A DNA stretch of 45,587 nt, from the IMG/VR virus record IMGVR_UViG_2597489870_000004; one strand, given 5' to 3'. Source of the stretch: a virus (taxonomy: Duplodnaviria; Heunggongvirae; Uroviricota; Caudoviricetes). The position numbers were made by a program, and so were the translations under genes. The notes beneath the pieces are model-generated. The model made no database searches. It was not told the origin of the DNA and was given only the letters and a program-made list of their open reading frames with translations. Positions 34,713-41,000 of this stretch are shown in pieces; within the stretch, counting starts at the first letter, position 1; each line of letters opens with the position of its first letter.

Positions 34713-34868
34713 TTACTCCTCAGGTTCGTAAGCTGTGAAGACAGCGACCTCCGTCTGGCCGGTTCGGATTCGTACCTCGCAGAGGTCTTTCCTCGTTACC
34801 AGTGCCGTCACTATGACGGTTAAACAGATGACGATCAGGGCGATTAACATCGCCTTTTGCTGCTTCAT
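34713..34868 (-). CDS. hok: Hok/Gef family type I toxin (51 aa)
   Basis: Translation MKQQKAMLIALIVICLTVIVTALVTRKDLCEVRIRTGQTEVAVFTAYEPEE, matching the remembered HokD/RelF sequence; below ORF-track cutoff, found by manual translation. Confidence 0.85.
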   Translation of the reverse strand: MKQQKAMLIALIVICLTVIVTALVTRKDLCEVRIRTGQTEVAVFTAYEPEE

Positions 34869-35126
34869 AGCCTGCTTCTCCTTGACCTTTCGGTCCGTAA
34901 GAGGCTAATCTCTATGTGTCGCATAGATATGGCCTCAGATTAATGTTAAGCGTCTTGCAGGACGCGTAATGTTAACTGGGGCTTTTCTCTATCTGCCTTT
35001 TGGTGTTCATGCCTGAGACAGATAGCCTCAAGCACCCGCAGTCATTCTACTTAACTAAGATTTCCCCGCAAACCGTTTTTGTCCGGCACAGTAAATATCC
35101 AACTAAACCAATGGCGTTCGCTGTAT

Positions 35127-38253: not shown

Positions 38254-38679
38254 TCAATGTACTGCCACAGCATTTCCTGCCGGGCCACCACGGTTCATCT
38301 GATTGAAACCGGCGATTGCCACTGCGACAAAATCATCAGCGTCTCTCACCAGTCGCTCCCGCGTCTCCACCAGCTCCCGAAAATAAGCTGAACTGTGGCT
38401 GCGCATTCTGGCCACCAGCAAAGGTGGCATTGCCTTTTCGATCGCTGGTAACAACGCCTGAATTTTTTCAACTGCATCAGGGGTGTCTTTCTCTACCCAG
38501 CGGAAAATTTTCTGGGTATTGCGAGCCAGGGCTTCCGGATGGCTGTCGTCATACAGTTCCGGGAACGTCATTCCCAGCTCGAAATACGCTTTGGTAATTT
38601 TCGCAGCCGGTACTTTTTCGCCGTCCGGATGCGCCCAGGCATTCATCGCCATGCGGATGTGTTCATGCTTGATTTTCAT
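38254..38679 (-). CDS. YdaT-like protein (CII-position early regulator candidate)
   Basis: 141 codons from ATG 38679 with AAGGAGGG Shine-Dalgarno; MKIKHEHIRMAMNAWAHPDGEKVPAAKITKAYFELG...; directly downstream of cro-like gene. Confidence 0.5.
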   Translation of the reverse strand: MKIKHEHIRMAMNAWAHPDGEKVPAAKITKAYFELGMTFPELYDDSHPEALARNTQKIFRWVEKDTPDAVEKIQALLPAIEKAMPPLLVARMRSHSSAYFRELVETRERLVRDADDFVAVAIAGFNQMNRGGPAGNAVAVH

Positions 38680-38905
38680 GAATCCCTCCTTGGTTAGAAG
38701 GCGGATTATGATCAGAACCGGGAATGACAACCGTCGGTATGTGTAACTCATATTTGAGCGCCCCGGCAGTGACTGCCTGAATTAGCAACGCCCATTTCCA
38801 CGGAACCTCTTCCCCCCACATGCTGACTGTGGTTTTTGACGTTCCTAGAGCTGCGGCTGTTTTAACAACTCCGCCAAAATAGCCTAATACTTCTGATTTT
38901 TTCAT
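38663..38905 (-). CDS. Cro-like HTH repressor (YdaS-like)
   Basis: 80 codons from ATG 38905; MKKSEVLGYFGGVVKTAAALGTSKTTVSMWGEEVPWKW... HTH; divergent from cI-like gene. Confidence 0.6.
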   Translation of the reverse strand: MKKSEVLGYFGGVVKTAAALGTSKTTVSMWGEEVPWKWALLIQAVTAGALKYELHIPTVVIPGSDHNPPSNQGGIHENQA

Positions 38906-38932
38906 GAGTCGCTCCATAAAACTGAACGTCAA

Positions 38933-38997
38933 AAGTTTAATAATCAAAACCAAAGAAAGTCAAGAAACAAAACCATCTGTGTTTTAAAATCAAAACA
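38933..38997. promoter_or_regulatory. Right operator/promoter region between cI-like and cro-like genes
   Basis: Palindrome TGTTTTaaaatcAAAACA at 38980-38997 (overlaps cI ATG) and degenerate copy AGTTTAataatcAAAACC at 38933-38950. Confidence 0.5.
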
Positions 38998-39635
38998 TGA
39001 GCAAGCAAACTATATCTGAACGCATAACCCAACGTATGCATGCGCTAAACCTGAAAGGCAAAGACCTTGTCAATGGCACTGGCGCATCAAAAGGCTCCGT
39101 AAGTCAATGGATGAACGGTGGAGGAGCGCCGTCCTCGCGTTACATAAGTTCACTGGCAAAAATATTGAAAGTAAACGAAAATTGGCTTCTTAATGGAGGA
39201 GAGTTAAATACAGGTGATTCGCTTGATCTATCTTTACCGCCGATAAAAACGGTTCCGCTACTATCACTTCAGCAGGCAGCAAGCTGGAGTGATTATATGA
39301 AAAATTCCTCAATAACCTCTTGTGTGCAGCTTGTCGGAGAAATCCCGGTCAATACCTTTGCAGTTGTTCTAGAGAGTGACAGTATGTCAACATCTGGTGG
39401 GGGAGTTTCCATCCCAAATGGTTCAACAGTTTTTGTTGATCCCGATCGAACCGTACAACCAGGAAATATTGTCCTTGCCTTACCCAAAGGGACCACAACA
39501 CCTGTCATTCGTAAACTGGAGATAGAAGGGCCGGATATTCTTTTAGTCCCCACGAATCCTCGCTACCCTTCAATTATGCTGGATGATCTATCTTGCATAT
39601 TGGGCGTATGCTTTAAAATTCAACAAGATATTTAA
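38997..39635 (+). CDS. CI-type prophage repressor (N-terminal HTH, C-terminal S24 LexA-like peptidase)
   Basis: 212 aa; HTH segment (SKGSVSQWMNGGGAPSSRYISSLAKIL) and C-terminal autoproteolysis-type domain. Confidence 0.8.
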   Translation: MSKQTISERITQRMHALNLKGKDLVNGTGASKGSVSQWMNGGGAPSSRYISSLAKILKVNENWLLNGGELNTGDSLDLSLPPIKTVPLLSLQQAASWSDYMKNSSITSCVQLVGEIPVNTFAVVLESDSMSTSGGGVSIPNGSTVFVDPDRTVQPGNIVLALPKGTTTPVIRKLEIEGPDILLVPTNPRYPSIMLDDLSCILGVCFKIQQDI

Positions 39636-39927: not shown

Positions 39928-40080
39928 ATGGATACTATCGATCTTGGCAACAACGAATCTCTGGTGTACGGCGTGTTTCCAAACCAGGACGGCACGTTTA
40001 CCGCGATGGCGTATACCAGAAGCAAAACGTTTAAAACTGAAGCTGGCGCGCGTCGCTGGTTAACCAGAAACACTGACTGA
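39928..40080 (+). CDS. ydfA: DUF1391 small protein (YdfA-like)
   Basis: 50 codons from internal ATG with GAGG upstream; MDTIDLGNNESLVYGVFPNQDGTFTAMAYTRSKTFKTEAGARRWLTRNTD resembles remembered YdfA. Confidence 0.6.
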   Translation: MDTIDLGNNESLVYGVFPNQDGTFTAMAYTRSKTFKTEAGARRWLTRNTD

Positions 40081-40421
40081 TGAGGTTGACGATGGAATTT
40101 AAAGATTTACCAGTACCATTCCAGGAAATGGCATCGAATGTGGTTCGCTCTCAACTGGCGACTCTTGACCTGAGTACCGTAGAAAAAGAAACCATCGACA
40201 ATATATCCGGTAACGTACGCCGAGCCTTTATCGGGCTGTACGAAGAGAAGCAGCTCTCTGATAACCAGGATTTACATGAAAAATACTTTCTGGAATTAAT
40301 GGACATCATTGATAAGGGGTTTGGCTTGTTAATAAAAAAGAAAGGGATTCGAATAGAACCCCTTGAAAATTACCTTGCAACAAAAAGCATTAATTCTTTT
40401 GATTCAAAACAAGAGAATTAA
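40080..40421 (+). CDS. Hypothetical protein (YdfB/YdfC position); start may be ATG at 40092
   Basis: 113-codon ORF following ydfA-like gene in same operon. Confidence 0.5.
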   Translation: MRLTMEFKDLPVPFQEMASNVVRSQLATLDLSTVEKETIDNISGNVRRAFIGLYEEKQLSDNQDLHEKYFLELMDIIDKGFGLLIKKKGIRIEPLENYLATKSINSFDSKQEN

Positions 40422-40664
40422 TTACAGATTTAACATGCTCTTTCTCATGATTGAAGCTCTCATGATTGAAAGTGCCTGGTTGAAGCGAGTCGATATAATC
40501 AACAAGACTCTGTCGTACGACTTCATTTTTATCCATTACAGATGCAAGAAATGAAATTGCTAAAAGAGTTATATCACTACGCGCCGCAGCATGCTGCAAT
40601 GCTTTATCAAAATTATTAATCTGGCGTATCAGGGAGTTAATGATTTCATCATTTTCAGTCGACA
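40390..40664 (-). CDS. Hypothetical protein encoded antisense to the early-left operon
   Basis: 91 codons from ATG 40664 preceded by AGGAGGGTG at 5-nt spacing; contains tandem SFNHE duplication; 3' end overlaps the convergent plus-strand ORF. Confidence 0.45.
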
Positions 40665-41000
40665 TTTCACCCTCCTGAGGGTTGGTGATTAAGGAGTTCT
40701 CCACGGGTGAGGTGGAGTGCGTGCGCCGGACACGGGTGAGCATCCGGCACTGACGGTTTACTGAAAGGATATTTCCCTGAAAAGTCAGACCATAACGCGA
40801 AAGCGCACGGCGAGGTAGCTGGTTCATAGATAGCCTGTCGTTAAATTTTCGTCGACCGTGCGCTTCCGGTTGTGGCAATCCGCGAAATGGCGCGGCGGTA
40901 AGTATGGCGGGGTTATTCCTTCCCCCGTTGAGGACACCGGGTTGTCAGGTTGACCATACGCTTAAGTGACAACCCCGCTGCAACGCCCTCTGTTATCAAT

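Follow-up and report, generated by a model that had tools for sequence, protein, structure and literature searches.

A small antisense gene, probably accessory cargo, in a recurrent slot beside the dicF leader of Qin/Rac-type lambdoid prophages

Introduction

Is a small open reading frame (ORF) that points against the early-left operon of a lambdoid prophage a gene in its own right, or a chance frame beside a structured RNA precursor? The question is raised by the IMG/VR virus record IMGVR_UViG_2597489870_000004 (Caudoviricetes), a stretch of 45,587 nucleotides (nt) that is called the window below. Here a minus-strand ORF of 91 amino acids (aa), named orf91, stands between the plus-strand gene orf109 and a GC-rich interval that runs up to the small RNA (sRNA) DicF. 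An earlier note on this DNA had singled out the ORF and wavered between an exclusion gene and a spurious frame. The window is identical to the chromosome of enterotoxigenic Escherichia coli (ETEC) H10407 over 8,981 nt spanning the orf91 locus, where a Qin/Rac-type lambdoid prophage has its immunity and early-left region. Work on the dicBF locus goes back to the 1980s and has regarded the long leader as an untranslated spacer. Our sequence comparisons indicate that orf91 is a real, narrowly distributed accessory prophage gene, and we consider it probable that it is a genuine small-protein accessory ('cargo') gene seated in an antisense slot that is conserved among Qin/Rac-type lambdoid prophages.

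Coding evidence for orf91

The 91-aa minus-strand ORF is indeed preceded, as the earlier note had pointed out, by a strong Shine-Dalgarno (SD) motif at ideal spacing (Table 1). In the ORF listing and the output of the Prokaryotic Genome Annotation Pipeline (PGAP), its frame can be extended upstream to a TTG at 40878 or an ATG at 40827; PGAP reports the 145-aa form from 40827 in H10407 (WP_001387733.1) and a short form of 86 or 91 aa in other genomes (e.g. WP_000102678.1). The long 145/162-aa reading was rejected, as the extension lies within the conserved dicF leader, and other prophages either lack it or have it out of frame. Since the extension is not maintained elsewhere, and since PGAP calls the short form in other genomes, the ATG at 40665 is the credible start.

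Length alone makes orf91 only modestly unlikely, and it is the comparison of homologous sequences that carries the coding case, strongly in our view. An open run of at least 91 codons appeared in 59 of 5000 shuffles (1.2%) of the 300-nt segment, and the frame stays open 27% of the time when 41 substitutions are placed at random. Both figures leave room for a frame that happens to be open in AT-rich filler of the DicF precursor transcript, as do the empty promoter scans and the lack of homologues of known function reported below. Against such a frame stand the ideally spaced SD motif and the state of the copies themselves, as orf91 is intact in 83/83 retrieved copies representing 13 DNA alleles. 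One of these alleles (contig L005) is ~15% diverged at the DNA level by 41 substitutions and its frame is still open, with a ratio of non-synonymous to synonymous substitution rates (dN/dS) of 0.31 relative to orf91, the lowest among the six frames. Moreover, indels occur in frame only: the tandem repeat of orf91 is present in 1, 2 or 3 copies, always in frame (one on contig L009, three on L047). A tandem duplicated SFNHE peptide had been described at this site; the duplication is there, while the repeated unit is FNHE followed by S or K and not SFNHE.

orf91 is present in 198 of 5426 complete E. coli genomes (~4%). In K-12 Qin the leader follows directly after ydfC, whereas in the window and in these genomes the orf109/orf91 pair is interposed. 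In the alignment with K-12, ydfB and ydfC, both missing from the window, stand where the window has orf109 and orf91, and homology breaks at ~40075 and ~40679. In other prophages the pair is placed after ydfA-ydfB-ydfC, and it is therefore an insertion and not a variant of ydfC. Alignment with the type-B prophages, which carry a 124-aa form of the plus-strand gene (orf124), further showed that the cassette-specific DNA (Table 1) is essentially the SD motif plus codons 1-84 of orf91. The segment is thus absent from the K-12 precursor, and the proposal that the ORF is spurious within the DicF precursor does not hold: orf91 lies outside the conserved interval, in an insert that K-12 lacks, and behaves as coding in the comparisons. 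Together with the distant homology to phrog_18692 and the four further ORF families that start at the same junction (see below), these observations make a chance frame hardly credible.

A recurrent antisense slot behind the dicF leader

A search of IMG/VR for the junction TTCACCCTCCTGAGGGTTRGTRATTAAGGAG, that is, the SD motif and the first leader bases, returned at least 120 prophage contigs, mostly near-identical E. coli prophages, so that the counts overstate independence. Directly behind the common SD motif lie five families of minus-strand ORFs (63-92 aa), whose starts fall 3-8 nt after it; 116 of 120 of these cargo ORFs are intact among the matches listed. Again among the matches listed, the 77-aa cargo (phrog_10348) occupies 43 loci, with a plus-gene partner of 135 aa and a 3' overlap of 23 nt; the 92-aa cargo (phrog_18692) occupies 39 loci, with a partner of 133 aa and an overlap of 41 nt; and the 91-aa cargo, orf91 itself, occupies 21 loci, with a partner of 106 or 109 aa and an overlap of 23 or 32 nt. 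The 73-aa cargo (phrog_7249; 13 loci, partner of 124 aa, overlap of 11 nt) and the 63-aa cargo (phrog_2605; 4 loci, partner of 201 aa, overlap of 23 nt) complete the set, in which the four families other than orf91 are recognised PHROGs. The arrangement recurs in Salmonella, where the leader is homologous and the start context reads GGAGGG. Neither the SD motif nor an ORF is present at the slot of K-12 Qin or of the type-B 124-aa form, the prophages that lack the junction.

With the 92-aa family, orf91 shares 28% identity over 86 aa in BLASTP (E 5e-6), and the phrog_18692 profile aligns residues 9-88 of the ORF with positions 6-89 of 92 at E 0.018, a match below the default threshold; a joint profile of orf91 and the 92-aa family retrieves both. 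We read orf91 as a distant relative of phrog_18692 and no clear member. The 92/93-aa proteins of this family, found in E. coli and Salmonella, have the same slot, the same SD junction, nearly the same length and a convergent overlapping neighbour, as orf91 has; no member has a known function, and membership would give no mechanism for orf91. Homology of orf91 to the 73-aa and 77-aa cargos was looked for and none was found. As judged from these alignments, the slot is shown to begin with a fixed junction, composed of the end of the dicF leader and AGGAGGG-TGAA, behind which differing and mostly unrelated small ORFs are exchanged, and orf91 is shown to be one of them. On one side the slot borders on the final small gene of the early-left operon (here orf109), and on the other on the conserved leader in front of the DicF/KilS sRNA and the kil-type gene dicB.

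A related prophage also carries a small minus-strand gene at the ydfA/ydfB position (L008 1666-1866), annotated as 'ECs_2282 family putative zinc-binding protein', and small antisense genes therefore recur in the early-left operon.

Comparison with sieB and other accessory genes

K-12 Rac (L214 4906-5812) has the order racR, ydaG, ydaF (DUF1391), antisense sieB, kilS sRNA and kilR. Its sieB has the same position and orientation as orf91, being antisense between ydaF, the equivalent of ydfA, and kilS-kilR, the equivalent of dicF-dicB. The 3' end of sieB overlaps the upstream ydaF by 4 nt, as orf91 likewise overlaps orf109, and part of the sRNA-proximal leader of Rac is homologous to the leader of the window, although the Rac junction is without the AGGAGGG start context seen at orf91. 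In addition, the DicF-like leader of Salmonella is homologous to KilS and to part of the KilS leader. SieB is the superinfection exclusion protein B, known also from lambda and P22; it is a membrane protein of 162 aa in Rac (~160-190 aa in the family), whereas orf91 encodes 91 aa with no predicted transmembrane (TM) helix, and no homology of orf91 to SieB was found in Pfam, NCBIfam, PHROGs and PADLOC scans or by phmmer. RexA and RexB, for their part, are encoded by two co-oriented genes next to cI, and RexB is a multi-pass membrane protein; orf91 stands alone as one small ORF with an apparently soluble product, is no direct neighbour of the repressor gene, and matches no such family in Pfam, NCBIfam or PADLOC. 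The suggestion that this is a position of exclusion genes such as rex or sieB is thus borne out for the slot, in which sieB is annotated in Rac, and fails for kinship, as neither SieB nor Rex homology is present. By analogy with Rac, an exclusion role of orf91 is plausible.

Morons, such as HK97 gp15, are independently expressed accessory genes placed between conserved genes. orf91 resembles them in its presence/absence polymorphism in otherwise collinear prophages, its deviating GC content, the terminator-like site downstream and its dispensability. It differs from them in that the insert contains no promoter, in its antisense orientation inside an operon, and in that several unrelated ORFs share one fixed start junction; besides, the terminator-like hairpin lies in sequence common to cargo-less prophages and not in the insert.

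The convergent neighbour orf109

Every cargo converges on a plus-strand gene of the MEFKDLP family. A rival explanation is that orf91 is the cognate partner (an antidote, immunity or regulator protein) of orf109 in a two-gene module, the latter being made on induction and orf91 constitutively. Such a module would resemble the pore-forming colicins, whose immunity genes are oppositely oriented. orf109, which matches phrog_6937 at E 8.5e-66, overlaps orf91 by 32 nt at its 3' end, and orf91 always occurs with an orf106/109 neighbour (3' overlap 23-32 nt), just as each of the five antisense families occurs with its own plus-gene C-terminus. In Salmonella, the 93-aa homologue still has a convergent partner, which it overlaps by 41 nt; this partner is a protein of 71 aa and corresponds only to the C-terminal domain of the 133-aa partner in E. 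coli. Purifying selection on the two genes is similar (dN/dS of 0.27-0.30 for orf109 and 0.31 for orf91), and a palindrome spans both stop codons (Table 1). However, the 124-aa form, ~88% identical to orf109 over the first ~105 residues, stands in at least 25 loci with no gene opposite to it and is accompanied elsewhere by the unrelated 73-aa gene, and the neighbour therefore needs no orf91. The orf124 body is accompanied by the 73-aa cargo, by orf91 or by no cargo at all, and the 135-aa body by the 77-aa cargo or, in extended form, by the 63-aa cargo, which favours an independent cargo over an obligate gene pair. One-to-one pairing is also what would be expected from physical overlap and recombination at conserved flanks, and neither orf91 nor orf109 matches a toxin, antitoxin or defence model in Pfam, NCBIfam or PADLOC. 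A cognate partnership is thus possible and, on balance, unlikely.

As the inverted repeat spans both stop codons, the C-termini of the two proteins mirror each other (INSFDSKQEN and INSLVLNQKN). The right arm of the repeat straddles the cassette breakpoint, a hint at an inverted duplication when the cassette was formed. A palindrome at every convergent junction was considered and rejected, since only the orf91 type has one.

Two side observations concern the plus-strand family. The first ~55 residues of orf109 (MEFKDLP...NVRRAFIGLY; 40092-40260, plus strand) form a conserved N-terminal module, which in E. coli prophages and Shiga toxin (Stx) phages is joined to no fewer than five unrelated C-terminal regions (loci L006, L007 and L091-L210; phrog_6937, 1363, 2151 and 9419). 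In Salmonella, the C-terminal domain of the 133-aa plus-gene type exists alone.

The dicF leader and its two strands

A long untranslated region precedes DicF, and processing by RNase E makes the DicF 5' end (PMC5069750, PMC9438474). The earlier note's alternative for the GC-rich structured region, a DicF precursor, is borne out: the leader shares 314 of 321 bases (97.8%) with the K-12 Qin ydfC-dicF region, DicF is identical in all 52 bases, and near-identity to K-12 extends from position 40680 through dicB, including 170/175 bases of the dicF-dicB spacer. On this alignment, the GC-rich interval is the known DicF precursor leader and lies outside the coding content of orf91. The GC content is 55% in the leader against 35% in orf91 and 38% in orf109, and leader plus dicF are 98.4% identical to those of L005, whose orf91 allele is only ~84% identical at the DNA level. 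Homologous leaders are found in Salmonella and, in part, in Rac. An interval identical to K-12 with no conserved minus-strand frame had been named as evidence against a gene here; this is the situation at 40680-41000, and it is not the situation of orf91.

All repeats reported earlier for this interval were recovered inside the leader: the 10-bp direct repeat CACGGGTGAG at 40702-40711 and 40731-40740, GCCGGA (40725-40730) pairing with TCCGGC (40743-40748), and GGGTTGTCA (40939-40947) pairing with TGACAACCC (40967-40975). Of the 144 homologous leaders only 66 have the direct repeat in two intact copies, and the second copy in K-12 has a mismatch; from this comparison the direct repeat is no conserved feature of the leader. 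The GCCGGA/TCCGGC hairpin is kept in 143 of the 144 leaders and GGTTGTCA/TGACAACC in 112. Both strands fold better than their shuffles, the plus strand with z = -2.05 and the minus strand with z = -4.0 (0/100 shuffles). Covariation among 72 distinct leaders was too scarce to assign the structure to a strand, as assessed with RNAalifold and a pair tally.

These folding data bear on another explanation, namely that the functional product is an antisense RNA, or transcription itself, which would damp leaky expression of the toxic dicF-dicB module by convergent transcription or by pairing of the RNA with the DicF precursor, the ORF being secondary. The dicBF operon is toxic when expressed (PMC5069750), any minus-strand transcript that reaches orf91 must cross the strand opposite the leader, and the minus-strand leader RNA folds better than both its shuffles and the plus strand. 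Conversely, five ORFs kept intact behind a strong SD motif and purifying selection on orf91 would be needless for a pure RNA role, K-12 and the type-B prophages keep the same leader without any cargo, and the scarcity of covariation leaves the structure without a strand. We regard a mainly RNA-level function as unlikely.

A more far-reaching proposal combines both strands. The leader would be bifunctional, its plus strand serving as the sRNA precursor and its minus strand as a shared promoter, 5' untranslated region (UTR) and SD, in other words an 'expression dock' for unrelated small cargos swapped by the Qin/Rac-type prophages of E. coli and Salmonella (at least five families plus Rac sieB). 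The cargo products would be lysogen-expressed anti-phage or exclusion factors of new kinds, and the cargo mRNA, as the complement of the DicF precursor, would also tie cargo expression to the silencing of the toxic dicF-dicB module. We hold this to be rather unlikely as a whole.

The insert supplies only 13 nt upstream of the orf91 ATG, and therefore any promoter has to lie in or beyond the conserved leader. A candidate sigma-70 promoter is present downstream of dicF (Table 1), and a stronger minus-strand candidate lies at 41605-41576; consensus and position-weight scans over the window, Salmonella L211 and Rac turned up no minus-strand promoter that was convincing or conserved. A minus-strand terminator after every cargo type was considered as well and rejected, since the 77-aa and 92-aa cassettes are without one.

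Within the dicF-dicB spacer, TTTTGTGATGCGGTG (41066-41080) and CACCGCATCACAAAA (41192-41206) make up a perfect inverted repeat of 15 bp, which may be the RNase III site yielding the 72-nt DicF form. The spacer also contains a sub-threshold match to STnc100 at 41065-41205 on the plus strand (39.6 bits against a gathering threshold of 47, E 6.5e-7), and this match downstream of dicF was all that an Rfam scan with E-values added near the leader beyond DicF.

Proposed role of the orf91 product

The product of orf91 is acidic (isoelectric point 5.4), and its maximum Kyte-Doolittle mean over 19 residues is 1.43, under the usual cut-off of 1.6, with no TM helix predicted. Two AlphaFold2 models were obtained, with mean predicted local distance difference test (pLDDT) values of 67.6 and 74.7; the latter, built with the joint alignment, is a three-helix bundle of residues 2-44, 48-60 and 68-84. 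A HEXXH zinc metalloprotease was considered because of HEKEH at residues 73-77 and rejected, as the motif reads QEKDH, KEKEH or EEKKH in homologues and the predicted fold is a bundle of three helices. Neither orf91 nor its 145-aa form gave a significant match in scans against Pfam, NCBIfam, PADLOC and PHROGs; the best PADLOC match of orf91, to BrxA (E 0.014, 12.8 bits), is noise. A phmmer search against 1.84 billion representatives returned only the protein's own cluster, tblastn of orf91 and its 92-aa relative against 50,697 phage genomes gave no match, and word-indexed, phmmer and joint profile searches found relatives only among hypothetical proteins of E. coli and Salmonella.

We propose that orf91 would be transcribed independently of the early-left operon, probably in the lysogen, because it points against that operon, which is repressed there. 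Its transcript would start in or beyond the leader, the opposite strand of which would be the shared 5' UTR. Because the predicted product is soluble, acidic and three-helical, it would work through contact with a partner protein, and not as an enzyme or as a pore in the membrane. By analogy with sieB, the occupant of this slot in Rac, its most likely role would be to protect the lysogen, be it by superinfection exclusion or by some other activity directed at phages or modulating the host.

Several points weigh against this interpretation of orf91 as a cargo gene with a protective role. The exclusion role is based on position only, the searches that were run disclosed no similarity of orf91 to proteins of known function or to defence models, and PDB and BFVD structure and sequence searches returned generic helical bundles only. 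Consensus and position-weight scans found no sigma-70-like minus-strand promoter in 40680-41000, and the candidate promoters beyond it are weak or hundreds of nt off, and would give 5' UTRs of 460-900 nt running antisense to dicF. The terminator-like hairpin lies within the orf109 coding sequence, and the number of such hits is not above that in shuffles. The contigs sharing the junction (at least 120) are not independent samples, being for the most part near-identical E. coli prophages. Finally, a widespread allele of orf91 (L216 528-650; protein clusters P0012-P0014; a cluster of 58 member sequences) carries an IS1A element behind codon 43, and since this interrupted allele is common, the gene is dispensable.

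Features of the locus

The features of the locus are collected in Table 1.

Table 1. Coordinates of orf91 and of the elements around it in the window.
Feature	Position	Strand	Remarks
cro-like gene	38663-38953	-	
cI-like repressor gene	38997-39635	+	
DUF1391 gene	end at 40080	+	equivalent to ydfA
orf109	40092-40421	+	convergent partner of orf91 in the early-left operon; MEFKDLP family, phrog_6937
Terminator-like hairpin (9 pairs) and T-run	40332-40364 (hairpin 40364-40342)	-	26 nt past the orf91 stop, within the orf109 coding sequence
16-nt inverted repeat	40389-40422		88% complementary, 2-nt spacer; spans the stop codons of orf109 and orf91
orf91 (91 aa)	40390-40665	-	ATG 40665-40663, stop codon 40390-40392
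orf91-cassette-specific sequence (~270 bp)	40412-40679		absent in K-12 Qin and in prophages where orf124 runs straight into the leader
15-bp tandem repeat, two units	40443-40457 and 40458-40472	-	13/15 bases identical; encodes FNHES and FNHEK
GC-rich interval between orf91 and dicF (336 nt)	40666-41001		
Shine-Dalgarno AGGAGGG	40676-40670	-	TGAA (4 nt) between SD and orf91 ATG
Conserved GC-rich dicF 5' leader	40680-41001	+	K-12 ydfC-dicF untranslated region
DicF sRNA	41002-41053	+	Rfam RF00039, 76.7 bits; 52/52 bases as in K-12
Candidate sigma-70 promoter TTAACA-16-GAGAAT	41163-41136	-	speculative; possible origin of an antisense transcript that would cross dicF and the leader and reach orf91
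dicB, ydfD, large exonuclease, xis, int	downstream of DicF	+	

With regard to the immunity region, the cI-like ORF is open in the window over 212 aa, comprising a helix-turn-helix (HTH) domain and an S24 peptidase. On the identical H10407 sequence, PGAP/RefSeq annotates only a 113-aa 'LexA family protein' (window 39297-39635), leaving the HTH half unannotated. Elsewhere in the prophage, a sok antitoxin RNA was detected at 34866-35037 on the minus strand (106.7 bits), which implies a hok/sok module, and two tRNA genes lie at 30371-30444 and 30545-30617, likewise on the minus strand.

Conclusions

What is new here is that orf91 belongs to a recurrent antisense cargo slot abutting the DicF leader, the leader itself being already known. 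At the level of annotation, the start of the 145-aa RefSeq entry WP_001387733.1 should be corrected to give the 91-aa form. Should orf91 prove to be without a phenotype, it would merely be one more prophage ORFan. Many natural E. coli and Salmonella prophages carry a variable small gene docked antisense against the dicF leader, at a fixed start junction and at the position where Rac carries sieB. Five families of small proteins, annotated so far as hypothetical, thereby become candidates for lysogen functions such as exclusion or host modulation. With this arrangement, transcription antisense to the DicF precursor may possibly influence how much DicF is made in pathogenic strains such as ETEC H10407.

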